The position numbers and the translations under genes were made by a program. From an uncultured Acidobacteriota bacterium (GTDB lineage: Bacteria > Acidobacteriota > Thermoanaerobaculia > UBA5066), in the NCBI GenBank assembly GCA_963779415.1, contig CAVZYA010000001.1, positions 516,519-580,518 on the forward strand: 64,000 nt of DNA, in the 5' to 3' direction. The notes below the pieces were generated by a model, which was given only the letters and a program-made list of their open reading frames with translations, was not told the DNA's origin and made no database searches. Shown in pieces: positions 4,920 to 39,488 of this stretch; the first letter of the stretch is position 1, and each line of letters begins with the position of its first letter.

Positions 4920-6053
4920 ATGAAAGAAGTCAGAAAGTCGTTCTTCCGGTTCGTTCTTCCAGCCGCGATCGTCGTTACGATTCTGGTGGCCGCGGCGCCC
5001 GCAAACGCCCAGGCCATCCTCAAGGTCTCGGACACGGTGAACCTCAAGTTCGGCATCCTCATGCAGGGGTGGGCCGACTGGCAGCAGACCCAGGCGGCTG
5101 GGGAGACGAATGGCTACGCGCAGAACCTCTTCCTCCGCCGGATGCGCATCCTGATGGCCGGCCAGGTCGCGAAGGACGTCACGTTCTTCCTCGAGACGGA
5201 CGACCCCAACCTCGGCAAGGCCCCGAAGAATCTCTACAACGTCGCGGACACGGCGACTTCGCCGGGATTCATCATCCAGGACGCGTTCATGCAGTGGAAG
5301 ATCGCGAACGAGTTCATGATCCAGGGCGGCCTCATCCTGATCCCGCTCTGCCGCAACTGCAACACGAGCGCCGCCTCGCTGCTGACGCTCGACTATGGAT
5401 CCTTCTCCTTCCTCGAGAGCGCGACCACGCAGTCGGTCGTCGGCCGTGACACCGGCTTCCAGGCCGTGGGCTATCTCCTGAGCGATCGCCTCGAGTACCG
5501 GGCCGGCGCTTATCAGGGCTTCCGCACGGCCAACTCCCACAACTCGTTCCGCTTCACCGGACGCCTCCAGTACGACTTCCTCGACGTCGAGAAGGGGCAG
5601 TTCTACCCGGGCACCTACCTCGGGAAGAAGAAGGTCCTCGCGATCGGCGCCGGCTACGACACGCAGGGCGACTACAAGGCGTACGCCTTCGACGGCTTCC
5701 TCGATCTCCCGGTCGGAAAGGGGAACGGGCTCACTGTCGAGGCGGACTTCGTCCACTACGACGGCGGAACCTTCTTCACGACCATGTACAACCAGGACAC
5801 GGAGATGGTCCGGGCCGGCTTCTACTTCGGCGGCGTCAAGCTGATGCCGTTCCTCCAGTACGAGAACGAGTCGTTCAAGGACGACATCCGGAAGGTCCTG
5901 AACAGCAGGAACTTCCAGGCGGGCCTCGCCTACTATCCCTACGGCTACAACTTCAACATCAAGCTCGCGTACACCCTCCGCGAGAGGCCGAACGACCCCG
6001 TGACCGCGAACACGAACGAGTTCACGCTCCAGATGCAGCTTTTCTACTTCTGA
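4920..6053 (+). CDS. Outer-membrane porin (OprO/OprP-like beta-barrel)
   Basis: Signal peptide ..AAAPANAQA, an LRRMRILMAG motif, alternating amphipathic strands and a C-terminal ..LQMQLFYF (terminal Phe). A purine-rich SD tract lies directly upstream. Confidence 0.7.
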   Translation: MKEVRKSFFRFVLPAAIVVTILVAAAPANAQAILKVSDTVNLKFGILMQGWADWQQTQAAGETNGYAQNLFLRRMRILMAGQVAKDVTFFLETDDPNLGKAPKNLYNVADTATSPGFIIQDAFMQWKIANEFMIQGGLILIPLCRNCNTSAASLLTLDYGSFSFLESATTQSVVGRDTGFQAVGYLLSDRLEYRAGAYQGFRTANSHNSFRFTGRLQYDFLDVEKGQFYPGTYLGKKKVLAIGAGYDTQGDYKAYAFDGFLDLPVGKGNGLTVEADFVHYDGGTFFTTMYNQDTEMVRAGFYFGGVKLMPFLQYENESFKDDIRKVLNSRNFQAGLAYYPYGYNFNIKLAYTLRERPNDPVTANTNEFTLQMQLFYF

Positions 6054-6118: not shown

Positions 6119-7345
6119 ATGGCGGAGGAAAAGCTACCCAACCGATGGATCATGGTCGTCGCGGCGCTGGTGATGCAGATATGCCTCGGCATCCTGTACG
6201 CCTACAGCGTCGTCCGGGGGCCCCTGACGAAGGAGCTCGGCTATACCGTCAAGGAAACCGGATACCCACTCATGGCCTCGTTCTTCTTCTTCGCGGTCGG
6301 CATGATCGTGGCCGGCCGCTGGCAGGACAAGGCCGGGCCTCGAACGGTCGGGCTCTTCGGCGGCGTGCTCCTCGCGATCGGGGCTGCGGTTGCCGGTGCG
6401 ATGTACAAGGACCTGACCATGCTGGTCATCGGCTACGGGGTCCTCGGTGGCCTCGGCGTCGGGTTCGCCTACGTCACACCGATCGCAACGTGCATCAAGT
6501 GGTTCCCTGACAAGAGAGGCACGATCACCGGCCTCGCGGTCTTCGGGTTCGGCGCGGGGACTCTCGTATTCGGGCCGCTGCTCTCCAGCCTCATCGCCAG
6601 CAGCGGCATCGCCACCACCTTCTACACCGTGGCCGTCATCATGCTCGTCTTCGTCTGTGGCTCCGCGGCCGTCTTCAAGGTCCCGCCCGCGGGCTACAAG
6701 CCCGCCGGATGGAACCCGCCGGCGCCCGCGCCGGGCGCACAGGTGATCAAGACGAACTACCTGCCGAGCGAGATCATCAAGACCGGCTCGTTCTGGATCC
6801 TCTGGTTCACCTACTTCATCGGCGCGTCGGCCGGCCTGATGATCATCGGGCAGGCGGTTCCCATCGGCGTCCAGGTGGCCAAGCTCACCGCGGCGGTGGC
6901 CGCCGGCGGCCTCGGCGTCATGGCCCTCCTGAACGGCCTCGGGCGGCTCTTCTGGGGGAGCGTCTCCGACAAGCTGGGCCGGACGAAGACCGTCATCGTC
7001 ATGTTCGTCGTCTACATCCTGGCCTTCGTCTTCGTCCTCCCGAACAGCAATACGTTCATGCTCTGGCTCGTGGGCATCTGCGCGGTCGGCTTCGCTTACG
7101 GCGGATACCTCGCTCTGATGCCTTCGCTCACGGCCGACTACTTCGGCACGAAGTCGCTCGGGGCGAACTACGGCTACCTCTTCACCGCGTGGGGCGTGGC
7201 CGGCGTGGGTGGCCCCTTCATGATCGACTGGATCAAGACGGCGACAGGCGCCTTCACGAACGCGATGTACGTCACGGCGGCCGCCTGCGTCGTCGGAATT
7301 ATTCTCGCTGCGATCGCGAAGCCCCCGAAACCGGAGGCCGCATAG
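6119..7345 (+). CDS. MFS transporter, oxalate/formate antiporter (OFA) family
   Basis: 408 aa with about 12 hydrophobic segments. The N-terminus NRWIMVVAALVMQICLGILYAYSV and AGRWQDKAGPR are typical of OFA-family MFS proteins. Confidence 0.88.
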   Translation: MAEEKLPNRWIMVVAALVMQICLGILYAYSVVRGPLTKELGYTVKETGYPLMASFFFFAVGMIVAGRWQDKAGPRTVGLFGGVLLAIGAAVAGAMYKDLTMLVIGYGVLGGLGVGFAYVTPIATCIKWFPDKRGTITGLAVFGFGAGTLVFGPLLSSLIASSGIATTFYTVAVIMLVFVCGSAAVFKVPPAGYKPAGWNPPAPAPGAQVIKTNYLPSEIIKTGSFWILWFTYFIGASAGLMIIGQAVPIGVQVAKLTAAVAAGGLGVMALLNGLGRLFWGSVSDKLGRTKTVIVMFVVYILAFVFVLPNSNTFMLWLVGICAVGFAYGGYLALMPSLTADYFGTKSLGANYGYLFTAWGVAGVGGPFMIDWIKTATGAFTNAMYVTAAACVVGIILAAIAKPPKPEAA

Positions 7346-7466
7346 ACTTAGGAGAGAAACTCTCGTAAGTGATAAGCCCGCGGGGCCGGGAGTTCCGGGC
7401 CCGGCCTCGTGGGTCATCTCTCGCAAGGCACCGGATTCGCTCCGTCAGACTTAATAACGTGCCTTC

Positions 7467-8966
7467 ATGGAGGTCCAAAACATGGCGGAAAAAAGAAATG
7501 TCGAGATCAAGAGCCGACAGGACACGCTGGCTCTGATCACTCCAGAAATCAGGCCCTGGCCTGTCTCACCACCCCCTTCGCCGGAGGAAGTGAAGAAGTC
7601 CTACGCCAAGCGGAAAGCCGAGGTGTTCGGCCAGTGGCTCGAAGACAACATGCGTCTCGAGTATTCCTGGCAGAAACCCGAGGCCCTGCAGGGCCTGAAG
7701 GTCCTCGACATCGGGCTCTGGAGGCTGGGGCACAAGTTCGGCGCCTCCACGCTCGCGCAGGCCGGTGCCGAGGTGATCTGTATCGAGCCCCCCACGGGCG
7801 ACCCGCTCAGACAGCTGACCCCCTTCGGGCGGGAAGAGTACATGCTCGCCGACAAGGAAACCGGCGAGAAGTGCGGCCTCGGGTTCATCGACATACACCG
7901 GAACACGCACTCGGTCACCCTCAACGTCGAGACTCCGGAGGGGCAGGAGCTGTTCAAGAAGCTCGCGGTCCACGCCGACATCGTCCTTGACGGGATGCTC
8001 CCCGGCTACATGGACAACCTCGGGATCGGGTACCGGGACCTCTCCCAGATCAACTCCCGCCTCATCTACGTGAACGTCATGCTCCGGGGATCCTGGGGCC
8101 CGGCAAAAGACCGCGTCTCCAAGTTCGGCCAGTGGGAACTGGATCCCTTCGCGCAGGCGACCAATTCGTACATTCACAACACCGGCTTCGCTCAGGACGC
8201 GCTGCCGCGCGGCAAAGGGGGCGACCCGACCCGGGCCGGGTCGTGGCTCGCCGACTATGTCGCCGGCGAGCAGGCGGCCGTCAACGCCCTCGCGGCGATC
8301 TACTGGCGGGAAGAGGTCAGCAATGAGGGGCAGTTCATCGAGGTGACCGGCGCCGAGACCCTGATGGACATCCTCGACTTCGACATCTCCTGGTACGGCT
8401 TCAACGGCAGCATCAAGGCGCGGACAGGGGGATGGGACCCCAACCTGAACCAGTATGCGTGGAACCCGTGCCGGGACGGCTACATGATGATCGGCGGCCA
8501 GAGCGACCGGCTCTGGTACCGGATCGGCATGTGCATCGAGCGGGACTTCCCGCAGTTCGGCCGGCTCATCCACGAAGACCCCTTCCTGAAGGAAGTCGGC
8601 GCGCGGAACGCCCTCCACGCCCTCATCAAGACCTACACCGTCACGACGCGCTGGCTCCGGGAGACCAATCGGATCGAGGCCGAAGAGAAGCTGATGGACT
8701 ACGAGATCGCGGCCGGCCCGCTCCTCTTCATCGACGAGACCTGCGAGTTCCCCCACTTCAAGTACCGGCCCTGGGTCTACAACTGCGAGACGGACTACGG
8801 GACCGTCCTCTACTCGACGGTCAATAACGCCTATCAGATGAGGACGCCGCACCGGGTCAAGTGGCTCGGGAGACGGCTCGGCAAGGACAACTACGACGTC
8901 TACCAGCGCTGGGCCGGACTGGGCCCGAACAAGGTGGACCAGCTCAAGGGAAAGGGGGCGATCTAA
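7467..8966 (+). CDS. CoA-transferase family III (CaiB/BaiF/Frc-like), paralogue 1
   Basis: [39 protein letters not shown], plus an Asp-containing active-site region [20 protein letters not shown] second in-frame ATG at 7482 is an alternative start. Confidence 0.88.
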
Positions 8967-10354
8967 TGGCCGGCGAGATCAGACCCAAGAGTGCGGGCGA
9001 GCTGCATGAGATGCGGGCGCCCTACGAGGAGTTCTGCCGGAAGGCCTTCGATCCCGGCAACGAGCACTCGAAGCCCGAGTCGCTGAAGGGGATCCGGTGG
9101 CTCTCCTGCACGATGTACATCTTCACGCCCCACTCGGCCGCGAACCTGGCCGAGCTGGGCGCCGAGGTGATCAAGATCGAGATCCCCCGGATGGGCGACG
9201 CCATGCGGCACACCTCGCCCTTCAACGAGGCGTACCTCTATCCCCTCCACGACACCCGGCCGGGGACGGGAACCGGGTTCGGGTTCACGAACGCCAACCC
9301 GAACAAGCACTTCATCTCCCTCGACTATCACGTACCGGAGATGCGGGAAGTTTTCTACAACATGGTCCGGCAGAGCGACGGGCTGACCGAGCTCTACCGT
9401 CCCGGGACCTTTGACCGCTGGAAGATGAGCTACCCGACCCTCGCGCAGATCAACCCGCGGTTCATCTACGTCTGGGGCGGCGGGTTCGGCTACGGGCCGA
9501 AGGTCTTCGGGGGCTCCTATGACATCCTCGCGCAGTCCCACGCCGGGTTCGCGTCCATCACCGGAATGCACGACTTCATGGGCGGCCACTGCTCCAAGTC
9601 ATCCAACTGGGTCATGGACTGGGCCTCCGGCACCCTGATCACGTTCGGGATCCTCGCCTCCATTCTCTGGCGCCGGAAGACCGGCCTCGGCACCATGATC
9701 GAGTTCTCGCAGGTGCAGACCTCCACGATGTTCACCGAGTATGCCGTTCCTCTTTACGGCCGGTTCGGCATCGTCCGGCAGCGGTGGGGAAACTGGGACA
9801 CCCAGCTCTGCGCCCACGGGATCATCCTTTGCGGCAAATCCGACTTCCCCGATGCCCAAAACCCGCAGGACAAGTTTGACGCCCGGTACGTCATGGTCTC
9901 CGCCTTCCAGGATGCGGACTTCAAGGAACTCTGCAACGTCGTCGGCCGGAAAGACATCTACGATAAATACAAAACGCACAAGGACCGGCTCGACCCCCGG
10001 GCCCAGGTCGACATCTACCAGGCGCTCGAGAAATGGGCCGGAGACAAGACCCGGGCGGCGGTGGTCAAGGTCCTGACCGACGCCGGCATCCTCGCCTCCC
10101 CCGTCATGAACGACCGGGAAGTCTACGAGTACGAGCACTACCGCGAGCGGGGCACCGTCCGCTGGATCGACGACCCCCTCTTCGGCGACTTCCTCCTGCA
10201 GGCCGGCTACAGCGCCGGCCACCTGGCCAAGACCCCGAGAAGGACGAACTGGATCTGGCGGCCCGTTGGCGCCGACAATGTCAAGATCTACCGGGATCTG
10301 CTCGGCTATCCACTGAGCAAGATCGAGGAGTGGTATGGCAAGGCCTACATCTAA
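8966..10354 (+). CDS. CoA-transferase family III (CaiB/BaiF/Frc-like), paralogue 2
   Basis: ORF 8861..10354 trimmed to ATG 8966 (TAATG junction with the upstream stop). Motifs [42 protein letters not shown] and [19 protein letters not shown]. Confidence 0.88.
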
Positions 10355-10368
10355 AAGGAGGCAGCGCC

Positions 10369-10854
10369 GTGTGTGACATCATCTGGTGCAAGAAGCAGGT
10401 TTCCGGCAAGACGTGCAACACCGTCAATTACCTGGACCCGTACAACTTCTGGAACTGGGAAGGCAAGGTGAACTGCGCCGAGTGCGGGACCGTCTACGCC
10501 ATCCACATGATCCAGGGCTTCATGTACAAGGGGCCAACGGAGAAACCCGGAGAGAAGCCCGACATGAGTCCCCTCTACGCCGACAAGCCGCTGGAGGGCT
10601 ACCGGTGTTACCTTCCCGGGATCGAGGGCAGGACGAGGCCTTGGCAGTGCCTCCCCCGACATATCTACCTCGGCCACGCGGACACGGTGAAGTGGAGCCT
10701 CCGCGGAAGACCCGTGCGTGGCTGGCGTCCTCAGCCGAAGTCTGCAGGCATCGCTGGAAGCTTCGGCCACAAGTGGGATATCGAGAAACTCTCACCGGAG
10801 ATCTGGGCCGAATACCAGGAGAAGCTGAAGAGCGGGAAGCTGAAGGACTGGTGA
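10369..10854 (+). CDS. Hypothetical protein with an N-terminal Cys cluster (zinc-ribbon-like)
   Basis: ORF 10033..10854 trimmed to GTG 10369, just downstream of AAGGAGG. The product starts VCDIIWCKKQVSGKTC..(18)..CAEC. No family recognised. Confidence 0.6.
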   Translation: MCDIIWCKKQVSGKTCNTVNYLDPYNFWNWEGKVNCAECGTVYAIHMIQGFMYKGPTEKPGEKPDMSPLYADKPLEGYRCYLPGIEGRTRPWQCLPRHIYLGHADTVKWSLRGRPVRGWRPQPKSAGIAGSFGHKWDIEKLSPEIWAEYQEKLKSGKLKDW

Positions 10855-10876
10855 GACATTCAGAAAGGAGCGCCAC

Positions 10877-11137
10877 ATGGCCGAGGGAAAACAGTTAACG
10901 CCTGAAGAATTCCTGGCTACGGTTCTCGTGCCGCAGTATGGCCGGGAAAGCGGGCACATGTGCTGGGATTGCAAGCACTTCAAACCGGTTCTGAAGGGCT
11001 CCAAGTTCCCGCCCACCGACACGATCGGCTGGTGCACGCAGATCCACTGGCCCTTCTACTGGTGCGTGACGGACTTCAACGTCGTCAAGAAGTGCTACGC
11101 CTTCGAGAAGGGCATTTACACCTTCAAGAAGTTCTGA
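10877..11137 (+). CDS. Small Cys-rich hypothetical protein (possible Fe-S or Zn protein)
   Basis: 86 aa, with GAAAGGAG 6 nt upstream. Cys pattern CWDC-x20-C-x9-C-x9-C. Confidence 0.65.
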   Translation: MAEGKQLTPEEFLATVLVPQYGRESGHMCWDCKHFKPVLKGSKFPPTDTIGWCTQIHWPFYWCVTDFNVVKKCYAFEKGIYTFKKF

Positions 11138-11138
11138 C

Positions 11139-11432
11139 ATGGAGGAGAACGTCCGGAAGGAGCTGGATACGCTCACGGGGATGGTGCTGACCTGGAAGAA
11201 GGACTATCTCGGGTCGGTATCATCCGATGAGGACTGCGAGTACCTCGCTCGGGAATTCCTGGACGAGGTGGAGACCCACGTCTACCCCTACGTGAGGAGG
11301 CTCATGGAATGCAATTTCCTCACGGGACCGGAGGCGACGGAGTTTCTCGACTCCTGCTATCGCCAGGCAGAGGAGCTGAACAAAGCCATCCAGCAGCCGG
11401 ACGCCAAACAGGGTGAAACGATAGGAGGGTAA
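11139..11432 (+). CDS. Hypothetical protein (acidic, probably helical)
   Basis: 97 aa. The ATG lies 1 nt after the upstream stop, and G/C at codon position 3 is high. No family recognised. Confidence 0.6.
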   Translation: MEENVRKELDTLTGMVLTWKKDYLGSVSSDEDCEYLAREFLDEVETHVYPYVRRLMECNFLTGPEATEFLDSCYRQAEELNKAIQQPDAKQGETIGG

Positions 11433-11434
11433 AC

Positions 11435-11854
11435 ATGGCTGAGAAATGCCGAGTGGGGGTCTGCGGGTACGACCCCGTTCTGGTGAAGGGATACGTCAAG
11501 ACAGGCGAGCGAGCCCTCTGGTGGCACCTGTCGGACGAGGTGTACGAACAATACCAGGTGAAGCCGGGTGACACCGTCACCGGGAAGATCCTGGCGGTTT
11601 ACGACGGGACCGGCACGAAGACGGCCTCCCCGAACGAGCCCTTCGAGTGGAAGTGCCCGAAGGAGTCGGGCCTGGCGGTCCTCCTGCCGCCTGCGACCAT
11701 CGTCAAGTTCAAGCTCTCCGCTTTCCATTTCCTCGAGCTGCTCGTGGAGAAGGTCGGCGGAAAGGACGTCTATCCCGGCAAGGAGCAGATGAGCTTGAAA
11801 TGGTGGCCCGAAGAGAGGATGAAGCTCGACTACAAGGTGCCTTACATCGAGTAG
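11435..11854 (+). CDS. Hypothetical protein
   Basis: 139 aa. AGGAGGG lies 5 nt upstream and the ATG is 2 nt after the upstream stop. N-terminal CRVGVC. No family recognised. Confidence 0.65.
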   Translation: MAEKCRVGVCGYDPVLVKGYVKTGERALWWHLSDEVYEQYQVKPGDTVTGKILAVYDGTGTKTASPNEPFEWKCPKESGLAVLLPPATIVKFKLSAFHFLELLVEKVGGKDVYPGKEQMSLKWWPEERMKLDYKVPYIE

Positions 11855-11948: not shown

Positions 11949-11993
11949 CCCCCTCTCCTGGCCCTGAAGCACCAGGAGAGGGGGATTCTTTTT
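11949..11993 (+). terminator. Rho-independent terminator closing the CoA-transferase operon
   Basis: Perfect 13-bp stem ccccctctcctgg (11949-11961) / ccaggagaggggg (11972-11984) with a 10-nt loop, followed by attcttttt. Confidence 0.75.
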
Positions 11994-12048
11994 CATGTAT
12001 CCTCGGCGATGGAACGGTGACATTCGATCGGAAGGGAGAATCGCGTAC

Positions 12049-12291
12049 ATGACAGAACACGACAAGCCGAATGAAGAGGGCTACACGGCTCCGGCGTACG
12101 TCGACCCGGCGATGGGCGACAGCCCCCCCGTCGGAGGCCTGATTGACAACGAGGCCGTCTGCCGGGACTGCATGACCGCCGCCGAGGAAGTCAGCATGCG
12201 GCGCGGGTTTGTCGACCCCGTCTCCGAGCAGCAGGCCAAGGCGAAGGGGACCGTCTGCGCCCGGTGCGGCAAGAAACTCGTCGCCGCGTAG
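12049..12291 (+). CDS. Small zinc-ribbon-like protein (two CxxC knuckles)
   Basis: ORF 11995..12291 trimmed to ATG 12049, which has GGAAGGGAGAA just upstream. 80 aa with CRDC-x29-CARC. Confidence 0.55.
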   Translation: MTEHDKPNEEGYTAPAYVDPAMGDSPPVGGLIDNEAVCRDCMTAAEEVSMRRGFVDPVSEQQAKAKGTVCARCGKKLVAA

Positions 12292-12334
12292 CGCCCCCTT
12301 CAATCCAGCCGGACGGGGCGGGCGGAATCACCTC

Positions 12335-12748
12335 ATGGCAGAGCCGGAAAAGGCCCCACGACGAGAGGTCGTCGAGCAGCTCCTGCCGCTCGTGGTGGAG
12401 TTGATTCCAGGGCAGGCGGCTGAAGGCCTGATCGAAGTGCTCGAGCCGGGCAGCTACGAGGCCCATTCCCTCCGGACGCTTTGCGAGAATCTCCTCAGGA
12501 GAACGAACTGGAGCGTGGAGGAGCAGCAGGTCCTGGAGGACATCAGGAGACAGCTCGACGGGGGCCGGCTCCTCTGCCGGGGCCGACCCGTCGACGGCCG
12601 GGCTCTGGATCTCGCGGTGGTCGAGGAAACCGAAGCAGGCGAGAAGTATCTCTATGTGCCTGTCCACGCCATCAGGCCGCAGGAAGGCGGAGGCGCGGCA
12701 CCCCGGATCGCGCACCAAAGTTCAGCAGACGAGAGCAGGAGCCTATGA
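12335..12748 (+). CDS. Hypothetical protein
   Basis: ORF 12209..12748 trimmed to ATG 12335. Codon-position-3 G/C is high on the + strand, and the antisense ORF 12191..12718 looks compositional. No family recognised. Confidence 0.55.
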   Translation: MAEPEKAPRREVVEQLLPLVVELIPGQAAEGLIEVLEPGSYEAHSLRTLCENLLRRTNWSVEEQQVLEDIRRQLDGGRLLCRGRPVDGRALDLAVVEETEAGEKYLYVPVHAIRPQEGGGAAPRIAHQSSADESRSL

Positions 12749-12951
12749 GTTCCAGGTTCGTAGTCACGGAGAGCACCACGGTGGACGATGTTGCCGCGGC
12801 GGGCCGGCCCGACCCCCTCTACTGCAAACTCGGCCTGGGCCAGCAGGCCCGCGTCCTCGCGGACGAGATCGATGCCGCGCTTGGTGGGGATACGAGCTGC
12901 GGGGGCGCCGGACTCGGATATGTTCCGGACATCGTAGAGGTTGAAGAATAG
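12745..12951 (+). CDS. Small acidic-tailed hypothetical protein (candidate modifier or adaptor)
   Basis: ATG 12745 overlaps the upstream stop (ATGA). 68 aa: MSSRFVVTES..VLADEIDAALGGDTSCGGAGLGYVPDIVEVEE. Confidence 0.45.
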   Translation: MSSRFVVTESTTVDDVAAAGRPDPLYCKLGLGQQARVLADEIDAALGGDTSCGGAGLGYVPDIVEVEE

Positions 12952-12964
12952 CCTGGAGAATCGC

Positions 12965-13159
12965 GTGGAGATAGAGGCTCCCAAGGACTGGGACCCGAAG
13001 TGCCCAAAGTGCCAGGAAGAGCTTCGACGAATGCTCGAGCTGTCACAGTCGGTCTACGAGGACCTCGACCACGGCGCGGGGTTGTACCGGTTGCCGTTGC
13101 CACCTTGCACGCACCATGCGGCGCAGGGCGAGCACAAAGACGCAGGAGGGGTCGCTTGA
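12965..13159 (+). CDS. Small Cys/His protein ending ..DAGG-VA (candidate Ubl/sulfur-carrier-type modifier precursor)
   Basis: The track ORF starts at TTG 12941, but I prefer GTG 12965 (GGAG 6 nt upstream). 64 aa with CPKC-x32-CTHH and C-terminus EHKDAGGVA. Codon position 3 is mostly G/C. Confidence 0.45.
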   Translation: MEIEAPKDWDPKCPKCQEELRRMLELSQSVYEDLDHGAGLYRLPLPPCTHHAAQGEHKDAGGVA

Positions 13160-13199
13160 CAGACCCACTTGTGGCTTTCCGGCCGTCGGGCGCCCCGGC

Positions 13200-14411
13200 A
13201 TGATGGATCTGCTGGAGTCCGACCTGGAGCTCGTCGTCCGGTCAGGATTCATCTACCTGCCGCTCCTCTTTGATCCTTCGGTGGCGACGGAGATCGAGGG
13301 GAACGTGGGCAATCACCTGGTCGCCCGGGACGCCGGCAGGCATTTCGTTCGGACGATGAGCCTGCGATCGCTCGTTTCAAGCTACGAGGCTCTCTGGCCG
13401 AAGTCGTACGAGAAGTTGCGGCGGTCGAAGCTGTGCCGGTTCTCCGGGGACCTTTCGCCGGCCGAAACGGGCGCCAGCGAGCGGCTGAAGGAGATCCTCT
13501 TCTCCGTCATGCCGCACTTCGTCAGGAGGGGGAAGCGGCTCGACAGGAGGCGGCTGACCGAGGAGGACGTGCTGGACCTCATCGAGGAGAGAACCGGACT
13601 TCCCGGCGGATACGCCATGGCTGCAGCCAGCGCTCGGGATCCGGGCTCCATCCGGCAGATCCTCGTGGAACTCGAGGAACGCCGCCCGGCGGCCGAGCCG
13701 CTGCCCGAGGGCCGAATGTCTGCGCGGACCCTCGCGGATTGGCTTCTGCGCGCCCAGGAAGCCCGGATTCTGGAAGAGGAGAGCCAGCGACTGACGGGGT
13801 TTCTCTCCGCGCAGGAGGGCCTCGATACGAGGGCGGCCAGGCGGCTGGCGATTTTGCGGTGCGTCGCGGAGAAGGGGACGTTGGAAATCGACGGATTCGG
13901 CTTTCTGAGGACAGGACCCGGCGACGACTACGTGATCTACAAGCGCACCGGCGAGTTCGCTCTCAAGGACTACTACGGTCGGCTCTATCTGTTTCCGGAT
14001 TGCCGGGTTGCCGTGTCGACGGCCGCTGGCCTCAGGCCCTTCGTCGTGGAGACCTACAAGCATCCGTTTCTCGAGGCCCACGACTCCGGCCAGGAGATCT
14101 GCCTGGGCCGCACCACGGCGCGCCGCTTCTCCGGAGCGGCGGCGATCGTCGAGGCTCTGCAGGAGGGAATCAACGCCCTGCTCCATGGCTACAGCAGCCG
14201 GCGCCGAAACGGGTACCACAGACTGGAGGGACTGTTGAGGTCGGTCCGGCTCCCTGGCCCGGACGATCCCGGCTACCCGGAACCGCCGGACGACAGGCCC
14301 CGCTCCAAGCGGCACATCCTGGACGTCGACTTCGACGACTACCGCATCCCGGCCGATCACCCCGGGATCGTGTCGGGTCGGGTCGAGATCACCAACGACG
14401 TCGTGCCGTGA
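13200..14411 (+). CDS. Unknown protein with a putative UBC/E2-like C-terminal domain
   Basis: ORF 13116..14411 trimmed to ATG 13200, since the upstream gene ends at 13159. The C-terminal part reads DDYVIYKRTGEFALKDYYGRLYLFPDCRVAV..LRPFVVETYKHPFLEAHDSGQEICLGRT, which parallels the E2 core (..HPN..G.ICL..). The N-terminal ~230 aa are unassigned. Confidence 0.6.
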   Translation: MMDLLESDLELVVRSGFIYLPLLFDPSVATEIEGNVGNHLVARDAGRHFVRTMSLRSLVSSYEALWPKSYEKLRRSKLCRFSGDLSPAETGASERLKEILFSVMPHFVRRGKRLDRRRLTEEDVLDLIEERTGLPGGYAMAAASARDPGSIRQILVELEERRPAAEPLPEGRMSARTLADWLLRAQEARILEEESQRLTGFLSAQEGLDTRAARRLAILRCVAEKGTLEIDGFGFLRTGPGDDYVIYKRTGEFALKDYYGRLYLFPDCRVAVSTAAGLRPFVVETYKHPFLEAHDSGQEICLGRTTARRFSGAAAIVEALQEGINALLHGYSSRRRNGYHRLEGLLRSVRLPGPDDPGYPEPPDDRPRSKRHILDVDFDDYRIPADHPGIVSGRVEITNDVVP

Positions 14412-14884
14412 TGACGACGGACGACACCCTCTCGCGGGACGAGCCGCCCCGGGCGACGCCGGATCTGTTGCGGGACATAAGAACCATGCGCGCCGGCAGG
14501 CGGCGGAAGGAGCCCTTTCGGACGAGCCTCTACTCCCGGGTCGGGGGTCTGGTGAGGCGATATGGCCTGGACGAGGCGTTCCTCCGGGCGCTCGACTCCC
14601 CGGGCGGCTTCTCCCGGGACGGCCGTCCGGATGCCGTCCGGCCGAAGGGGAAAGCGCCCTATGCTCCTCCCCTCTTTTTCCTTTCCACGGAGAGAGAGCA
14701 CCGCGTGACGACGGTCATCCTGGAGAAAGTGAAGAGCCCGTTCCTCGCGTACGCCACGTCGCCCGACGAGATTCTCCTCTGCGAACGCCTGTTCCGTGAG
14801 GACCCGTCCCTTTCTCAGGAAACGCTCGCGTGCCATCATTTCGAGACGTTGATGCCGGCCGGAGCGGATTCCGGGCCGGGCTGA
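14411..14884 (+). CDS. Hypothetical protein
   Basis: ATG 14411 shares 1 nt with the upstream TGA (TGATG). 157 aa. No family recognised. Confidence 0.6.
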   Translation: MTTDDTLSRDEPPRATPDLLRDIRTMRAGRRRKEPFRTSLYSRVGGLVRRYGLDEAFLRALDSPGGFSRDGRPDAVRPKGKAPYAPPLFFLSTEREHRVTTVILEKVKSPFLAYATSPDEILLCERLFREDPSLSQETLACHHFETLMPAGADSGPG

Positions 14885-14899
14885 GGCGGGAGGAGAGTC

Positions 14900-16000
14900 G
14901 TGGAACGGATTTCGCCGCAACGCCGCCGGGAGATCGGGGAGAGAGTCGGCGCATTCCGCGAGAGCCAGGTCGGCGACGCCGTCAATCAGATTCTCGAGTT
15001 CGACAAGACGCCGGCCGACCTCAAGGCCTACATGGACCGGTTCGTCATCGGCCAGGAGCAGGGGAAGAAGATCATCTCCGTCGGCATCGCCTACCATTAC
15101 CGGAGGCTCGCGGCGGCCCTCAGGCGCGCCGTCGTCGAGAACGGCGAGGAGCTGGGCGCCGCCTTGCACGGCGCGGCCACGCCGAAGGCCAACATCCTGA
15201 TCGTGGGGCCCCCCGGCTGCGGGAAGACCTACACGGGCGAGGTCGCCTCCCGGCTCGTGGGGGTGCCGTTCGCCGTGGAGGACCTGACGAAGTTCAGCGA
15301 AACGGGCTACGTGGGCCAGAACGTGAGCGACATCCTCCTGGACCTGCTGATCGCGGCCGGCGGCAACCCCCAGGTGGCCCAGATGGGCATCGTCTACCTG
15401 GACGAGATCGACAAGATCGCCGCCGAGCCGATCGTCTCGAAGGACGTGTCGGGGCGCGGGGTCCAGAAGGGGCTCCTCAAGCTCGTCGAGGGGGCCGAGA
15501 ACACCATCGACCTGGGCCAAGAACGGATCTCCCTTTCCACCCGACACGTCCTGTTCATCGCAGGAGGCGTGTTCGAGGGGCTGGAAGGAACCGTCGGAAA
15601 GCGGATGGAAAGGGATCGTCTCGAAGGCGAGTGGAAGGACCACCTCCTCACGGACGACTTCGTCGGCTGCGGGATGGAGCGGCAGCTCATGGGGAGGTTC
15701 CCCGTTCGGGCCGTCTACGACCCGCTCAGCGTCGAAGACCTCAAGAACATCCTGCTCGAGAGCGAGGAGAGTCCGTCCCGCGCCTACATCGACGACCTGA
15801 AGGCGTGGAACATCGAACTCCGGTTCACGGACGGCGCTCTCACGGAGGTCGCGAGGCGCGCGCAGCAGGATCGGACGGGCGCCCGGGGACTCATCGGCAT
15901 CCTCCACAAGGTGCTTCTGGAGGACATGTACCGGCTTCCGGGCGTCCACACCGGCGAGCTGGTGGTGGACGAGAAGTACATCCGGGAGCGGCTCGGGTGA
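14900..16000 (+). CDS. ClpX/HslU-family AAA+ ATPase (minimal, with no zinc-binding N-domain and no IGF loop)
   Basis: GTG start after GGAGGAGAG. Motifs [27 protein letters not shown], Walker A GPPGCGKT, pore-1 loop ETGYVGQN, Walker [28 protein letters not shown] and sensor-2 TGARGL. Confidence 0.88.
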
Positions 16001-16803
16001 GATTCCGGGGGCTCTCGGAGCTGAAGCGCGCGCCATGCTTCGAGGCTCCCGTGGGAACCCTGCCGGAGTGGATCCGGATGACGCGTCACTCCCTCGCGAA
16101 GGCCTTCAAGATCAACGAGCTCGTCCGGTCCGTCCACGGGGACAGCTACGAGTGGTACGGATTCACCGTCGCCGAGCGGAGCGATCCGGAGCTGGTCGTG
16201 GACGTTCTTCTTCCGGCCAACGACGAGAACTTCACGGACCACACCCGCGTCGCACCCGAGGCGATCGACGCGTCGAGAGAGTCCCTCCCCCGGGATCGGG
16301 TGATCAACGGCTGGATCCACTCCCACGGGGCCCTGCCGTACGAAGGGTTCTCCTTCGTGGACGAGAGGAACCAGGAGGCCGTGACCGATTACGTGAACAC
16401 GCTTCTCAGGAAGCCGGTGGCCAAGAAGGAGATCCTGATCAGGGACCTCGCGATCCTCGTCGAGGGCCGCTTCTCGGAGAAGGAGCTGGAGCAGGGAAGC
16501 GTCGCGCTCATCACCGACGCCCCCGTCAAGGAGGCCCGGATCATCGAGACCATATACGGAAGCTTCTGCTTCGCCATCGTCATCGGCGACGACGGCTGGC
16601 ACAGGCAGCAGGTCCATTACCGCAGGCGGGGCATCCTTTCCGGGCAGACGACCGAGGAGAGCCGGGACACCGACATCGTCCTTTCGGGCGACGCGCGGCC
16701 GCTCACCGAGGCGGAGATCCAGATGCTGGCGGACGAGGTCCGCACCCGGATCCGGCCGGGCGTGGCCGTTCCACCCGAGCGGTTCGAGCGGGAGGCGACA
16801 TAA
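15997..16803 (+). CDS. JAB/MPN (JAMM) metalloprotease-domain protein
   Basis: JAMM signature: Glu in SYEWYGF, then [18 protein letters not shown] (HxH..S..D). The start is either GTG 15997 (GTGA overlap with the ATPase stop) or ATG 16078. The ~100-aa C-terminal extension is unassigned. Confidence 0.8.
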
Positions 16804-16840
16804 GGTCGGCGGCGGCCTGGGGCGAAGGGACGCGATCGGC

Positions 16841-18118
16841 ATGGAGACGGGACCGGCTCGCGAGAAGGCGCATGACCCGAGGCTGGACCGCCAGCTCCGG
16901 ATCCCGAACTGGAACCAGCGGGCCCTCGAGGAGGCGCGGCTCGCCGTCTTCGGCGACGACGACCTTCTCGCCTCGCTCTACGTCCTCTCCGCCGCGGCCC
17001 TCGGCGTGAACGACGTCGTCCTGATCGCGCCCGCCTGGAATGAGAAGCTGATCGAAATCGCCCGCCAGCTCAATCCGAGGCTCAGGCTGGCCCTCCTCGA
17101 GGGGCTCCACACCCACCCGGTCCTGGAGGAGCTCTTCAGGCCCTGCACGGCCATCGTGGACCTCACCCGCTACGCTCTGGCCAACAAGCTTCTGCTGGAG
17201 ACGGGCTACCGGTCGGGAATTCCGGTGATCCGTGGGTTCTGCCTCGAGAAAGACGGGTGGGAAGGGCTCTCCGTCTTCACCTACAGGCGCGGCCGGGAGT
17301 GGGAGGAGCTCCGGGAGCTCGTCTCGCCCTCCAATCTTCCCTGCGACCACTTCGACGACGCGATTCTGGCCCTCGTCGCGGCCGGCATCGCCCTGGAAGA
17401 AACCAAGAACGTCATCATGGGACACCGGGTGTCGGAGGAGCTGATCGGCTACAGGCGGCCGAAGGTGGTTCCCCTGGAGCCCGACTCCGGCGTCATCATC
17501 GTCGGCGCCGGCGCCCTGGGTAACTTCGTCGGGCTCGGACTGGCCTGTACGGGGCTCCGGCGAATCACGGTCGTCGATCCCGACGTGGTGGACGTGACTA
17601 ACCTCAACAGGCAGGTGCTCCTGGCCGGCGGCGTAGGCCGAAGCAAGGCCGAGGTCCTCTGCGAGCGCCTGCACTCCCTCTTCGGAATCCGGGCGGAGGC
17701 CCGGGTGGCTTATTTCCGGAAGGACTCCGAGCTCGACGCCTCCGACGCTGTCTTCGATTGCGTGGACAACTTCGAGACCCGGGTGATCCTGAGTGAGAGG
17801 TGCCGGGAAGAGGGAAAGGTGCTCATCAGCGGCGGCACGGGCCCTCAGGCCGGACAGGTCATCGTGTTCGATCCGGCGCGCCCGAGCGAAACGCCCGCGG
17901 AGGTTCTGGGACTCTACGAAATCGTCGAGAGGCGGGAGATCGACGCCTTCCGGAGGGAGACGGCGTCCTGCGCCTACCAGCCCGATCCGTCCGTCGTCAT
18001 GACGAATCAGATTATCGGAGGATTGATGGCCGATTCCTATCGTAGGCTCCTGGCCGGAGAGGAGACCCCGAATATCTTCTACGATTCGAGGAACGACGCC
18101 CGGATCTTCGGGGGGTGA
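16841..18118 (+). CDS. E1-like ThiF/MoeB/HesA-family adenylyltransferase with tandem (degenerate + active) Rossmann domains
   Basis: The active domain has VIIVGAGALGNFVGLGLACTGLRRITVVDPDVVDVTNLNRQVL and a Cys in RETASCAYQPDPSVVMTNQIIGG. The N-terminal half repeats the fold outline (LDRQLRIPNWNQRALEEARLAVFGDDDLLASLYVLSAAALGV) but lacks GxGxxG. Confidence 0.88.
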   Translation: METGPAREKAHDPRLDRQLRIPNWNQRALEEARLAVFGDDDLLASLYVLSAAALGVNDVVLIAPAWNEKLIEIARQLNPRLRLALLEGLHTHPVLEELFRPCTAIVDLTRYALANKLLLETGYRSGIPVIRGFCLEKDGWEGLSVFTYRRGREWEELRELVSPSNLPCDHFDDAILALVAAGIALEETKNVIMGHRVSEELIGYRRPKVVPLEPDSGVIIVGAGALGNFVGLGLACTGLRRITVVDPDVVDVTNLNRQVLLAGGVGRSKAEVLCERLHSLFGIRAEARVAYFRKDSELDASDAVFDCVDNFETRVILSERCREEGKVLISGGTGPQAGQVIVFDPARPSETPAEVLGLYEIVERREIDAFRRETASCAYQPDPSVVMTNQIIGGLMADSYRRLLAGEETPNIFYDSRNDARIFGG

Positions 18119-18191: not shown

Positions 18192-19415
18192 ATGAGCAGC
18201 GAGAACGACGTCGCGCAGACTCAGGAGGACCAGCCGATCGGCTGGCAGCGCCTCGGCGACGTCCTGACACCGCCGATTCCCGGCTTCGAGGACCTCCTCT
18301 TCCTTCCGAGCCTCGACAATCAGTCCTCCAACATCTACGTCCTGCCGGGGGACTGCGTAACGATCGTGGACCCGGGGAACGATTACACGGCCTTAATGGA
18401 GCTCTTCCCTGCGAGAGCCAGGCCCGAGGACGTCAGGAAGATCGTCCTGACGCACGGGCATTTCGACCACGCCATGGGGGCGCTCGAGTTCCTCAGGACG
18501 TATCCGGATCGCCCCACGGGCGCGCGCATCGAGCTGATCCTCCACGAAGGGGGTCCCGACCAGTTCAAGCAGACGGCGAGGGAGCAGGGCGCCTCCGTGA
18601 CCGAGGTACGGGGCGGGGAGACTCTCGAGCTGAGCGGCCTTTCCTTCGACGTGATCTACACGCCAGGCCATACCATCGACGGCATCGCCCTCTATCACGC
18701 CCCCTCGAGGACCGTCTTCAGCGGCGACGTCGTGCTGCCGCTCGCGGTAGCCGGACCCGATCCCAAGGCCGGGGGAAGCCTGGACCAGTACCTGTTCGGG
18801 CTGAGGGCGTTGCTCGCGAGGGAGATCGAGAACGTCCTCCCGGGCCACGGCCCCGTCGTCGGCCCGGGCGGGAGGAAGGTCATCGAGCAGACCTACGAGG
18901 CCGTCATGATGAAGCTCCTGGGGGTCGAGAAGCCGATCCCGTGGATCCAGGGTGCCATTCAGCTCGCGGAGCGCGGGCTGCTGGAAGAGGCCGTTTTCTG
19001 CGCCGGGAAAGAGCTGGCCCGCGACCCGGGGCACGCCAAGGCCCTCGAGCTCAAGGCCGTGTGCCTCAACGATCTCGGGCGGTCGTCTGAGGCCCTCGAG
19101 GTCCTGGATCGGCTGCAGGAGCTGCAGGCCGGCGACGATGCGTTCATCCACGTCGGCAGGGGATATGCCCTCATGGGGCTTGGCCAGTTCGAGGAGAGCG
19201 TCAAGTGCTTCGACGCCGCTCTCCGCATCACGCCGGGCCTGAGGGACGCGCTCGTCTACAAGGGGATGGCCCTCCATCTCTCGGGGAACCACGAGGAGGC
19301 CATGGACATCGAGCCCTTCAGGACGGAGTTCATGGGGCGGTTCCGGAGCGAGCTGCTCAAGGCGTCGCGGCCCGCCCCGAAGGATGGCCTCGCCGAAGGC
19401 ACTGGAAAGGCCTGA
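18192..19415 (+). CDS. Metallo-beta-lactamase-fold hydrolase fused to TPR repeats
   Basis: AAGGAG lies 5 nt upstream. Motif VLTHGHFDH (HxHxDH) and TPGHT. The C-terminal ~150 aa are TPR-like helical repeats (..AKALELKAVCLNDLGRSSEALEVLDRL..). Confidence 0.85.
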   Translation: MSSENDVAQTQEDQPIGWQRLGDVLTPPIPGFEDLLFLPSLDNQSSNIYVLPGDCVTIVDPGNDYTALMELFPARARPEDVRKIVLTHGHFDHAMGALEFLRTYPDRPTGARIELILHEGGPDQFKQTAREQGASVTEVRGGETLELSGLSFDVIYTPGHTIDGIALYHAPSRTVFSGDVVLPLAVAGPDPKAGGSLDQYLFGLRALLAREIENVLPGHGPVVGPGGRKVIEQTYEAVMMKLLGVEKPIPWIQGAIQLAERGLLEEAVFCAGKELARDPGHAKALELKAVCLNDLGRSSEALEVLDRLQELQAGDDAFIHVGRGYALMGLGQFEESVKCFDAALRITPGLRDALVYKGMALHLSGNHEEAMDIEPFRTEFMGRFRSELLKASRPAPKDGLAEGTGKA

Positions 19416-19540: not shown

Positions 19541-21214
19541 GTGAGCACGATTCCCGAAAACTATCTTCCCCCGAAGGAGTTCCAACCCGAGCGGATCTAC
19601 AAGCTGAAGGAGTTCGCGAGCTACCCGGATCCGCTGAACAGCACCGAGGAGCTACTCGACAAACAGATCGCCGCGGGCCGGGGCGACAGCCCGGCGGTCC
19701 TCTTTGCGGACAAGGTCCTGACCTACAAGCAGCTTCTGGGGGCGTCCTGCAAGATCGGGAACGCGCTCCGGAAGCTGGGGGTCGAGGAGTCGGACCGGGT
19801 GTTGCTCCGCTCTCCGAACGTTCCGCCCGCCCTCTTCACGAACTTCGGGGTCCTGAGGCTCGGGGCGGTCATCGTCCCGACCTCTCACATGCTCTCCCCC
19901 CCGGAGATCATCCACATCGCCAACAACGCCGAGGCGAAGGTGATCGTGGTGGCGTCCGCGTTCCTCGAAGGGGTCATCAAGGCGCGCCCGAACCTGAAGA
20001 CCGTCAAGCACGTCATCGTCTTCGGCGGCCAGCCCGAGGAGCTGAAGAAGCAGGATCTTCTCTGCTACGAGGAGCTCGTCGCGAACGAGGCGCCGGCCTT
20101 CGCCCCGGTACGCCGTCCGCGCAAAGCCGTCGCCGTTCTTCTTTACACCTCGGGCACGACCGGCCTGCCGAAAGGGACGGTCCACTACCAGGAAGAGGCC
20201 CTGATCGTTCCGGACACCTTCGGCAAGTACGGATGGAACGTCCAGCCGGAAGACATCATCTGCGGACCCGCGCCCATCTCGCTGGCCGGCGGATACTCGA
20301 CCGTGGCGACGATCCCCTTCCGGTTCGGCGCCGCGGCCTCCCTGATTCCCAAATTCACGCCGGACGGGCTCTTCGAGACGGTCCAGAATCACAAGGTGAC
20401 GATCCTGAGCGCCCTCCCCACGGCGTACCGCAAGATGCTCGAGGTTCCCGGCGCGGAGAAGAAATACAACCTCTCCACCCTCCGCGTCCTGACCGGTGGC
20501 GGTGAATCGCTGACCGCAAAAACCTACAACGACTGGAAGGGGCGCTTCGGCCAGGAGATCTACGAGGGGCTCGGCACGTCGGAGATGATGTACGTCTTCG
20601 TCTCGAGCGTGGTGACGCGGAAAGTCAAGCCCGGCGCGATCGGCACCGCCGTCCCCGGTTACGAGATCCAGGTCATCACCGAGGAGGGAAAGGTCGCCAA
20701 GCCCGGAGAGCTGGGCCGGCTTTACGCCCGCGGGCCGACGGGGACGCTCTACTGGCGCCCGTACGAGGACGGCGGCAGCATGCTGGAGAAGCAGAAAGCC
20801 GTCATCCGCGAGGGGTGGGTGCTCGTCGGGGACTTCTGCACGATAGACGACGACGGGTACCTCAGCTTCGTGTCGCGCCAGGAGGACCTGATCAAGAGCT
20901 CCGGCTACCGGATCGGACCCGAGGAGGTCGAGGACGCTCTTCTCAAGCACCCGGCCGTGGCGGACGCCGGCGTGATCGGGGTTCCGGACCCCGTCCGGGG
21001 CCACAACGTCAAGGCCTTCGTCCTCCTGAGGCCCGGACAGACGCCGAGCGACGAGCTGAAGCAGCAGATCATCGACAGTTGCCGAGATCACATCGCGATC
21101 TACAAGCTTCCCCGCATCATCGAATTCACGAGCGAACTCCCGCGCACCCTCCAGGGGAAGCTCCTCCGGCGGGTTCTGCGGGACAAGGACAAGGGGGCGG
21201 CTCCCGCGAGCTAG
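19541..21214 (+). CDS. AMP-forming acyl-CoA synthetase (benzoate-CoA-ligase-like)
   Basis: ORF 19205..21214 trimmed to GTG 19541, after AGGAGGA. AMP-binding motifs LLYTSGTTGLPKG, GYRIGPEEVE and a C-terminal ..LPRTLQGKLLRR. Confidence 0.9.
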   Translation: MSTIPENYLPPKEFQPERIYKLKEFASYPDPLNSTEELLDKQIAAGRGDSPAVLFADKVLTYKQLLGASCKIGNALRKLGVEESDRVLLRSPNVPPALFTNFGVLRLGAVIVPTSHMLSPPEIIHIANNAEAKVIVVASAFLEGVIKARPNLKTVKHVIVFGGQPEELKKQDLLCYEELVANEAPAFAPVRRPRKAVAVLLYTSGTTGLPKGTVHYQEEALIVPDTFGKYGWNVQPEDIICGPAPISLAGGYSTVATIPFRFGAAASLIPKFTPDGLFETVQNHKVTILSALPTAYRKMLEVPGAEKKYNLSTLRVLTGGGESLTAKTYNDWKGRFGQEIYEGLGTSEMMYVFVSSVVTRKVKPGAIGTAVPGYEIQVITEEGKVAKPGELGRLYARGPTGTLYWRPYEDGGSMLEKQKAVIREGWVLVGDFCTIDDDGYLSFVSRQEDLIKSSGYRIGPEEVEDALLKHPAVADAGVIGVPDPVRGHNVKAFVLLRPGQTPSDELKQQIIDSCRDHIAIYKLPRIIEFTSELPRTLQGKLLRRVLRDKDKGAAPAS

Positions 21215-39430: not shown

Positions 39431-39446
39431 TGGCACGTTGATTGCC
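39431..39446 (+). promoter_or_regulatory. Sigma-54 (-24/-12) promoter
   Basis: TGGCAC-gttga-TTGC matches TGGCAC-N5-TTGC exactly. It lies 43 bp upstream of ATG 39489 and is divergent from a sigma-54 activator gene. Confidence 0.7.
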
Positions 39447-39488
39447 ATAGAGGACCATGCGGGACGAACCGCAGCGCGGAGGGCTCGA

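Follow-up and report, generated by a model that had tools for sequence, protein, structure and literature searches.

Four small genes behind a CoA-transferase pair

Which enzyme is served by four consecutive short open reading frames (ORFs) to which no protein family can be assigned? The question is raised by positions 10369-11854 of a 64,000-nucleotide stretch of DNA from an uncultured Acidobacteriota bacterium (assembly GCA_963779415.1, contig CAVZYA010000001.1, positions 516,519 to 580,518 of the forward strand), which was analysed as a whole and is referred to below as the window. A preliminary description of the ORFs had pointed out Cys motifs in three of them and had tentatively likened the second to BssB/BssC, small [4Fe-4S] subunits of glycyl-radical enzymes. 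The analysis presented here leads to a different partner: the four small proteins are probably dedicated subunits of a heteromeric enzyme of the family III coenzyme A (CoA)-transferase type, which is encoded directly upstream. We favour this reading because of the strict linkage of the genes, their tight packing, the co-variation of their products, a gene fusion in a paralogous unit and the very high conservation of the first small protein.

All four ORFs lie on the plus strand at the coordinates first assigned to them: o161 (10369-10854, GTG start, 161 amino acids, aa), o86 (10877-11137, 86 aa), o97 (11139-11432, 97 aa) and o139 (11435-11854, 139 aa). They follow two genes for family III CoA-transferase-like proteins, here called CoATa and CoATb, which overlap by 1 nucleotide (nt); the gaps between CoATb, o161, o86, o97 and o139 are 14, 22, 1 and 2 nt, respectively. 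The G+C content of the small ORFs is 0.80-0.86 at the third codon position vs 0.35-0.46 at the second, as in the neighbouring genes and in line with the high third-position values reported before. Ribosome-binding sites of the Shine-Dalgarno type had been ascribed to all four ORFs; clear GGAGG-type sequences precede three of them, and none precedes the 97-aa ORF, whose start 1 nt past the stop of the 86-aa ORF suggests translational coupling. None of the four has a significant match in Pfam or NCBIfam, so the description ‘family-less’ still applies, and no relative of the small proteins was found in the PDB.

Exact copies of the ORFs are found on metagenome contigs from freshwater sediment and other sources. 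Among near-identical metagenome strains, the 161-aa ORF differs by 19 synonymous changes vs one non-synonymous change, and the synonymous to non-synonymous ratio for the 139-aa ORF is 11:0 or 19:4. Present in relatives, kept in the same order across phyla and changed mostly at synonymous sites, the four ORFs are far more than chance reading frames and are genuine genes. Downstream of o139, at 11949-11994 on the plus strand, there is a hairpin that resembles an intrinsic terminator, with a 13-bp G+C-rich stem followed by the U-run AUUCUUUUUC. Its fold energy is -29 kcal/mol (z -2.7), and it was overlooked by a consensus terminator scan because its loop is 10 nt long. It is the single terminator-like element behind o139 and closes a six-gene unit made up of the two transferase genes and the four small genes.

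Distribution and co-variation of the six-gene unit

One genome per species was scanned for relatives of the 161-aa protein, which were found at 453 loci, and the best 80 of these loci were compared. Each of the 80 that is long enough to show it has its genes in the order CoATa-CoATb-o161-o86-o97-o139, and the gene tables of independent contigs list the same six genes in the same order. We refer to this arrangement as type A. The hosts of the best 80 loci belong to Methylomirabilota, Terriglobia and other Acidobacteriota, Syntrophobacteraceae, Desulfobacterales, Desulfobacca, Anaerolineae, Binatia, Margulisiibacteriota and Sulfurifustaceae. At least seven bacterial phyla are thus represented (Acidobacteriota, Methylomirabilota, Desulfobacterota, Chloroflexota, Binatia, Margulisiibacteriota and Gammaproteobacteria).

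The proteins of the related loci are identical to those of the window at 64-86% of positions for CoATa, 68-87% for CoATb, 72-84% for o161, 54-87% for o86, 29-63% for o97 (the least conserved of the four small proteins) and 47-81% for o139. The mean pairwise distance is 0.20 both for o161 and for the catalytic subunit of the transferase pair, that is, the small protein is conserved as strongly as that subunit. The pairwise distances of the six proteins correlate with one another (r = 0.71-0.94), from which we conclude that the six genes evolve and are transferred together. An exhaustive HMMER search of 1.84 billion representative proteins returned 163 relatives across all four ORFs. In word-indexed searches the 97-aa protein had 139 homologues and the 86-aa protein had 66, every one of them unnamed or annotated as ‘hypothetical’. 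No description of a CoA-transferase with small Cys-rich subunits was found in Pfam, NCBIfam, the PDB or the searchable literature. Some single metagenome-assembled genomes contain two or three diverged copies of the six genes (loci L077, L079 and L081; L084 and L085; L031 and L042), which suggests paralogues with different substrates.

The CoA-transferase subunits

CoATa (7482-8966, plus strand, 494 aa) and CoATb (8966-10354, plus strand, 462 aa) both match the family III CoA-transferase profile PF02515, with E-values of 8.7e-61 and 1.5e-69, respectively; of its 366 positions, CoATa covers 1-365 and CoATb 1-358. The open frame of CoATa begins at 7467. We chose the ATG at 7482, which has a GGAGG upstream, to match the 494-aa length of the relatives. 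The best NCBIfam scores of the two proteins (118-144 bits) lie below the cut-offs of 413-750 bits, and no characterised equivalog (Frc, CaiB, mesaconate, glutarate and other CoA-transferases) was reached.

The catalytic nucleophile of the family (Asp169 in Frc) corresponds to Asp186 of CoATb, and this residue is invariant in 146 of 146 loci of type A and of the paralogous type B described below. The equivalent residue of CoATa is D226 (numbered from 7467; positions 8142-8144 of the window). It is Asp in the window, and among 73 alignable type A relatives the position is occupied by Glu in 48 and by Ser in 5. The constancy of the Asp in CoATb together with the Asp, Glu or Ser of CoATa suggests one catalytic and one degenerate subunit. 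Judged from these alignments, CoATb is probably the only catalytic subunit and CoATa a degenerate partner.

A paired organisation of this kind has a known counterpart. The succinyl-CoA:(R)-benzylsuccinate CoA-transferase BbsEF (PDB 9fn0) likewise consists of two paralogous PF02515 subunits encoded by adjacent genes; its chain 9fn0_B is the nearest solved chain to CoATb (E 1.5e-27), in which the catalytic Asp is kept. Compared with Frc, YfdW, CaiB and BbsEF, the two proteins of the window are about 25-30% identical and about 60-100 aa longer. None of these members is known to have obligatorily linked small subunits; here the transferase pair is always followed by small proteins, four in type A and three in type B.

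Cysteines and predicted features of the small proteins

The protein o161 contains Cys at positions 2, 7, 16, 36, 39, 80 and 94. The CAEC motif described earlier stands at residues 36-39, whereas the spacing between C7 and C16 is eight residues instead of the seven first given. The residues C7, C16, C36 and C39 are kept without exception, or almost so, in both type A and type B; conservation of C94 is restricted to type A, and C2 is not conserved. The conserved residues thus form two Cys pairs, or knuckles, about 20 residues apart (C7-x8-C16 ... C36-x2-C39), and in most relatives the arrangement is CxxC...CxxC. It is consistent with an N-terminal Cys4 module of the zinc-ribbon or rubredoxin-like kind; no match to either was found in Pfam or NCBIfam, and a profile search of the PDB gave nothing significant. 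Pro, Arg and Gly abound in the other 110 residues, which are nevertheless very conserved, a combination which suggests an extended arm that becomes ordered only on a partner.

The Cys residues of o86 are C29, C32, C53, C63 and C73, exactly in the pattern CWDC-x20-C-x9-C-x9-C that had been read from the sequence before. In an alignment of 50 homologues, H27, C29, C32 and C73 are invariant, C53 is nearly so and C63 is variable, and the conserved site is therefore C29-x2-C32-x20-C53-x19-C73. Aromatic residues make up 18.6% of the protein.

The protein o97 is found in type A only and is acidic, as stated previously (isoelectric point 4.4; 21 Asp and Glu vs 10 Lys and Arg); judged by its sequence, it looks helical. 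A 153-aa relative of o97 with a Cys-rich C-terminal extension is encoded at 675-1136 of locus L176, a short contig with phage-like small genes and without a CoA-transferase, so an o97-like domain also exists outside the unit. The protein o139, which is type A-specific as well, has the N-terminal CRVGVC (C5 and C10) that had drawn attention to it, and a further Cys at position 74. Among 28 close relatives C10 is invariant and C5 nearly so, and each of them is lost in a more distant homologue; CRVGVC does not appear to be a robust metal motif. The predicted structure of the o139 core (about residues 28-110) matches a cradle-loop (RIFT or swapped-hairpin) beta-barrel, and this modelled barrel resembles cradle-loop barrels (PhS018) and not OB folds.

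Relation of o86 to accessory subunits of glycyl-radical enzymes

The proposed similarity of o86 to BssB/BssC holds for the type of four-Cys motif, which is conserved, and for the general idea of a small Cys-rich accessory protein; neither homology nor a glycyl-radical partner could be established. No Pfam match to PF08201, the BssC/TutF family, was obtained, PknG_rubred with an E-value of 0.12 being the one Pfam hit at E <= 1, and no Fe-S or Zn profile in Pfam matches o86 significantly. A profile built from 50 o86 sequences retrieved no benzylsuccinate synthase (BSS), (1-methylalkyl)succinate synthase (MASS) or high-potential iron-sulfur protein (HiPIP) chain among all PDB chains at E <= 10, only 1zvf at E 0.68. 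An hhalign comparison with a HiPIP sequence gave a probability of 1.4%. With Pfam, PDB profile, Foldseek and hhalign comparisons negative or uninformative, homology to BssB/BssC (HiPIP) is not supported, although the low-confidence structure model of o86 described below leaves room for a HiPIP-like fold. The window and every long enough locus of the 80 have two PF02515 genes as the neighbours of o86. There is no glycyl-radical enzyme among the large ORFs of the window, as the preliminary description had already remarked, nor was one found among the conserved neighbour-gene clusters of the related loci.

In functional terms, the accessory subunits of X-succinate synthases nonetheless offer the closest analogy, and the idea of small Cys-rich accessory subunits agrees with the strict linkage to two large genes. 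The HiPIP-like beta and gamma subunits of X-succinate synthases bind [4Fe-4S] clusters through CX2CXnCXnC, and the accessory subunits, the sequences of which are dissimilar to one another, bind and gate the catalytic subunit (PMC12358834). The accessory subunits of BSS, MASS and hydroxyphenylacetate decarboxylase (HPAD) are likewise small (6-13 kDa), Cys-rich and encoded beside a large catalytic subunit. The gamma subunit of BSS and the beta and gamma subunits of MASS share CX2CXnCXnC with o86, and the CxnC...CxxC module of o161 parallels the rubredoxin-like delta subunit of MASS. Unlike in the X-succinate synthases, the partner here is a CoA-transferase pair and no activase is present, and unlike BssC/TutF, o86 has no PF08201 or PDB profile match.

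A second parallel may be offered by the DUF35-type Zn-ribbon/OB-fold scaffolds, which hold CoA-ester enzymes together; examples are BbsA in benzoylsuccinyl-CoA thiolase and the archaeal thiolase/HMG-CoA synthase complex. These scaffolds combine a Cys4 ribbon with a small beta-barrel, as the putative ribbon of o161 and the predicted barrel of o139 would do. Here, however, ribbon and barrel are on separate polypeptides and the partner belongs to another enzyme class, and none of the small proteins has a Pfam match to DUF35.

A paralogous unit with the same core

Distant relatives of o161 of about 132 aa were traced in metagenomes, where they occupy the same position behind a transferase pair (CoATa' and CoATb') that is 42-48% identical to that of the window. 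This arrangement (type B) continues with a protein of about 61 aa that contains the pattern C-x2-C-x18-C-x20-C. Compared with the 86-aa family in hhalign, it gave an E-value of 1.4e-4 and a probability of 53%, with the four Cys and a WP motif in register. The order CoATa'-CoATb'-o161'-o86' thus matches that of type A. Further downstream, type B has a 124-aa family-less protein and an adenosine monophosphate (AMP)-forming ligase, and a 4HBT thioesterase is often added. Since o97 and o139 are absent from type B, the ancient core of the system would comprise the two transferases and the two Cys4 proteins.

In three type B loci the Cys4 protein of about 61 aa and the 124-aa protein behind it are joined in one fusion protein (L095, 1217-1819; L098, 2473-3075; L105, 8409-9011). 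Such a fusion can be read as a Rosetta-stone sign of physical association among the small proteins. The 124-aa protein looks ArsD- or thioredoxin-like by eye. In two further loci (L158 and L171) the Cys4 protein has a long N-terminal extension rich in Lys and Ala.

Linked genes and the surrounding window

Several genes on the plus strand downstream of the unit recur at related loci. A 407-aa protein with a metallo-beta-lactamase (MBL) fold and tetratricopeptide repeats (TPR) is encoded at 18192-19415 (Lactamase_B E 5.7e-24, plus TPR); its top NCBIfam match, a weak one, is to hydroxyacylglutathione hydrolase. In 63-67 related loci the four small genes are likewise followed by a homologue, and we regard this protein as a frequent seventh member and a candidate thioester hydrolase. 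An AMP-forming acyl-CoA ligase of 557 aa follows at 19541-21214. It scores 296.7 bits against TIGR02262, near, yet under, the cut-off of 375 for the benzoate-CoA ligase family. Almost all type B units have a ligase, to which that of the window is 53-62% identical; among the type A loci about a dozen have one.

The unit is separated from the MBL-TPR gene by a cluster of accessory genes (12049-18118, plus strand), in which Pfam recognises AAA_2 and ThiF only. It encodes proteins of 80 aa (with CxxC..CxxC) and of 137, 68, 403 and 157 aa without family, a ClpB-D2-like AAA+ ATPase (14900-16000; Pfam AAA_2), a 241-aa protein without Pfam match (16078-16803) and a ThiF/E1-like protein (16841-18118; Pfam ThiF). 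The set recurs beside the unit, pointing one way or the other, in about 10 loci that belong to Methylomirabilota, Binatia and Desulfobacterota. No type B locus has the set, and about 85% of type A loci lack it as well; its membership of the unit is uncertain. We considered whether the 12-18 kb region is a foreign insertion that parts the unit from the MBL-TPR gene and rejected this, as other phyla have the same genes next to the unit. Nor do we regard the cluster as a known defence system, since PADLOC gave only generic E1 and AAA matches. The sequence GWIHSHG-x8-S-x2-D of the 241-aa protein resembles by eye a JAMM/JAB metalloprotease motif; with no JAB match in Pfam, the PDB or PADLOC, this assignment is unsupported.

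In the window, o97 ends with Gly-Gly (11427-11432). The same end is found in L013, L018, L022 and L174, which carry the ThiF/AAA+ set like the window, and in L043, L044, L047 and L058, which do not; five loci with the accessory set have no Gly-Gly end. Many other homologues of o97 end with ...(G/S/E)HA. The correlation between the Gly-Gly end and the ThiF cluster is therefore partial and probably clade-bound.

The genes upstream of CoATa lie on the same strand and encode an ExtI-like porin (4920-6053) and a transporter of the major facilitator superfamily (MFS; 6119-7345). Scored with the NCBIfam model of the L-lactate transporter SfMCT, the transporter reaches 413 bits and so passes the cut-off of 320. 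A similar gene occurs at only one of the related loci (L064), so the transporter is a weak hint to the substrate. No operon context is given in the SfMCT paper. A sigma-54-type site just 5' of CoATa (AGGCAC-N5-TCGC, 7426-7441) was discarded, because such sites occur in the window at chance level (16 found vs 11.5 expected); no such site precedes CoATa in 114 related loci. Activators of the PAS/sigma-54 type are encoded upstream of the unit in 32 related loci. Elsewhere in the window, a PAS/sigma-54 activator gene (37947-39278, minus strand) is divergent from the gene of a CCG/Fer4_8 protein (39438-40880, plus strand). A sigma-54 promoter-like site with one mismatch, TGGCACGTTGATTGCC, is located at 39431-39446 and overlaps the first start codon of the latter ORF.

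Proposed role of the small proteins and alternatives

In the arrangement we favour, CoATb, with its catalytic Asp, would be the active subunit, and CoATa would be a paralogous partner, possibly non-catalytic. The proteins o161 and o86, as the ancient part of the accessory set common to both unit types, may bind metal (Zn or Fe, or a [4Fe-4S] cluster in the case of o86) and may clamp the transferase dimer, either stabilising it or gating its active site; this model is drawn by analogy from the beta, gamma and delta subunits of X-succinate synthases on their catalytic subunit. The acidic o97 and the small beta-barrel protein o139 would serve as adaptor subunits specific to type A. The substrate could be the CoA thioester of a carboxylic acid, perhaps an aromatic one or another monocarboxylate. 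The AMP-forming ligase would prime this thioester, and a thioesterase-like protein (of the MBL fold in type A and 4HBT in type B) would release or proof-read it.

Several points weigh against this proposal. We assume CoA-transferase activity because the two large proteins belong to the family, yet they are only about 25-30% identical to enzymes that have been characterised and score far under the NCBIfam cut-offs, and family III also holds racemases and intramolecular transferases. We know of no family III CoA-transferase that has obligatorily linked small subunits or needs extra ones, which makes the role given here to the small proteins purely our inference. The AlphaFold (AF2) model of o86, built from 50 sequences, is of low confidence (mean predicted local distance difference test score, pLDDT, 62; predicted template modelling score, pTM, 0.43), and Foldseek returned 0 matches for it in the PDB at E <= 10. 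Relatives do not share the transporter and the porin that precede the unit in the window. What the data show is the reality of the genes, their strict co-linearity and co-evolution, the conserved Cys and the transferase family with its Asp; we infer the physical complex, the identity of the metal and the substrate.

Instead of a plain CoA-transferase, the same genes could encode an enzyme of redox or radical chemistry that depends on CoA thioesters (a reductase, dehydratase or dehydroxylase). The CoA-transferase fold would then act as a thioester-binding module, and o86 with a HiPIP-like [4Fe-4S] cluster and o161 with a rubredoxin-type Fe site would supply or remove electrons. In o86 the pattern CX2CXnCXnC combines one CxxC with two lone Cys, a spacing typical of cubane ligands and untypical of zinc ribbons, and the conserved aromatic residues around these Cys are HiPIP-like (PMC12358834). 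On the other hand, the unit has no conserved companion gene for a ferredoxin, an oxidoreductase or an ATP-dependent activator, neither profile nor fold comparisons revealed similarity to any Fe-S protein, and the CxnC...CxxC of o161 is just as typical of structural Zn sites. A precedent would be FldABC, a phenyllactate dehydratase complex that includes a family III CoA-transferase. The hosts are mostly anaerobes from sediments, groundwater and digesters, although those from Terriglobia, Binatia and Sulfurifustaceae need not be strict anaerobes. On balance we consider a redox or radical function possible and rather unlikely.

The accessory cluster invites a comparison with biosynthesis of pyridine-2,6-dithiocarboxylic acid (PDTC) or thioquinolobactin, in which case o97 with its Gly-Gly end would be a carrier for sulfur transfer or C-terminal activation, adenylated by the ThiF-like enzyme. 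The PDTC cluster comprises ThiS-like, E1-like, JAB, CaiB-like CoA-transferase and AMP ligase genes (PdtF-J; PMC1779556). The window and about 10 relatives have in common with the PDTC and thioquinolobactin clusters that they combine a CaiB-like transferase with an AMP-forming ligase and an E1-like ThiF protein; in the window the ThiF/E1-like protein, the AAA+ ATPase, the CaiB-like pair and the ligase form one plus-strand cluster, the accessory set stands beside the unit in several phyla, and four of the related loci share both the set and the Gly-Gly end. Against this, the set with its E1 protein is missing from most loci, including all of type B, and the Gly-Gly end and the set each occur without the other, so that the end may mark one clade. 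Moreover, by its sequence o97 looks helical and not like a beta-grasp protein, neither a ThiS/MoaD-like carrier gene nor a rhodanese was found, nothing confirms the JAMM-like motif of the 241-aa protein, and the PDTC and thioquinolobactin clusters have no counterpart of the four small ORFs. A carrier role for o97 is thus improbable. We give still less credence to the view that the small proteins are independent of the transferase, be it as co-transcribed regulators, chaperones, toxin-antitoxin components or peptide precursors, or as true BssB/BssC subunits whose glycyl-radical enzyme has its gene at another place in the genome. The o97-like domain in the unrelated phage-like context of L176 would fit such independence, but the linkage to the CoA-transferase is invariant across the 80 genome loci and in the second, paralogous unit, the six genes co-vary, and an identity of 72-84% for o161 across phyla is atypical of regulators or precursors. 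The BssB/BssC alternative is further opposed by the missing PF08201 match and by the lack of a glycyl-radical enzyme in the window or in the conserved neighbour clusters. Dedicated subunits of the upstream enzyme therefore remain the reading that we prefer for the four small proteins.

Implications for family III CoA-transferases

Family III CoA-transferases are regarded as homo- or heterodimers that need no further subunits, and in the unit described here a transferase pair has four obligatory family-less partners, of which two contain invariant Cys4 sites. The pattern, which is seen at 453 species-representative loci and hundreds more in metagenomes, points to an undescribed enzyme architecture in the anaerobic carbon metabolism of sediments, peat, groundwater and digesters. 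It defines four new protein families, plus the variants of type B, and widens the theme of small Fe-S or rubredoxin-like accessory subunits past the glycyl-radical enzymes. More speculatively, and with little weight given to it at present, the unit might represent a new class of multi-subunit metal- or Fe-S-dependent CoA-thioester enzymes, in which the heterodimer would be the substrate-binding core, o161 and o86 would have redox or gating functions in the anaerobic conversion of carboxylic acids, possibly aromatic ones, and some hosts would couple the enzyme to an E1-like/AAA+ system acting on the Gly-Gly end of o97. If the small subunits are redox-active, the unit would be a new type of CoA-ester-dependent enzyme.

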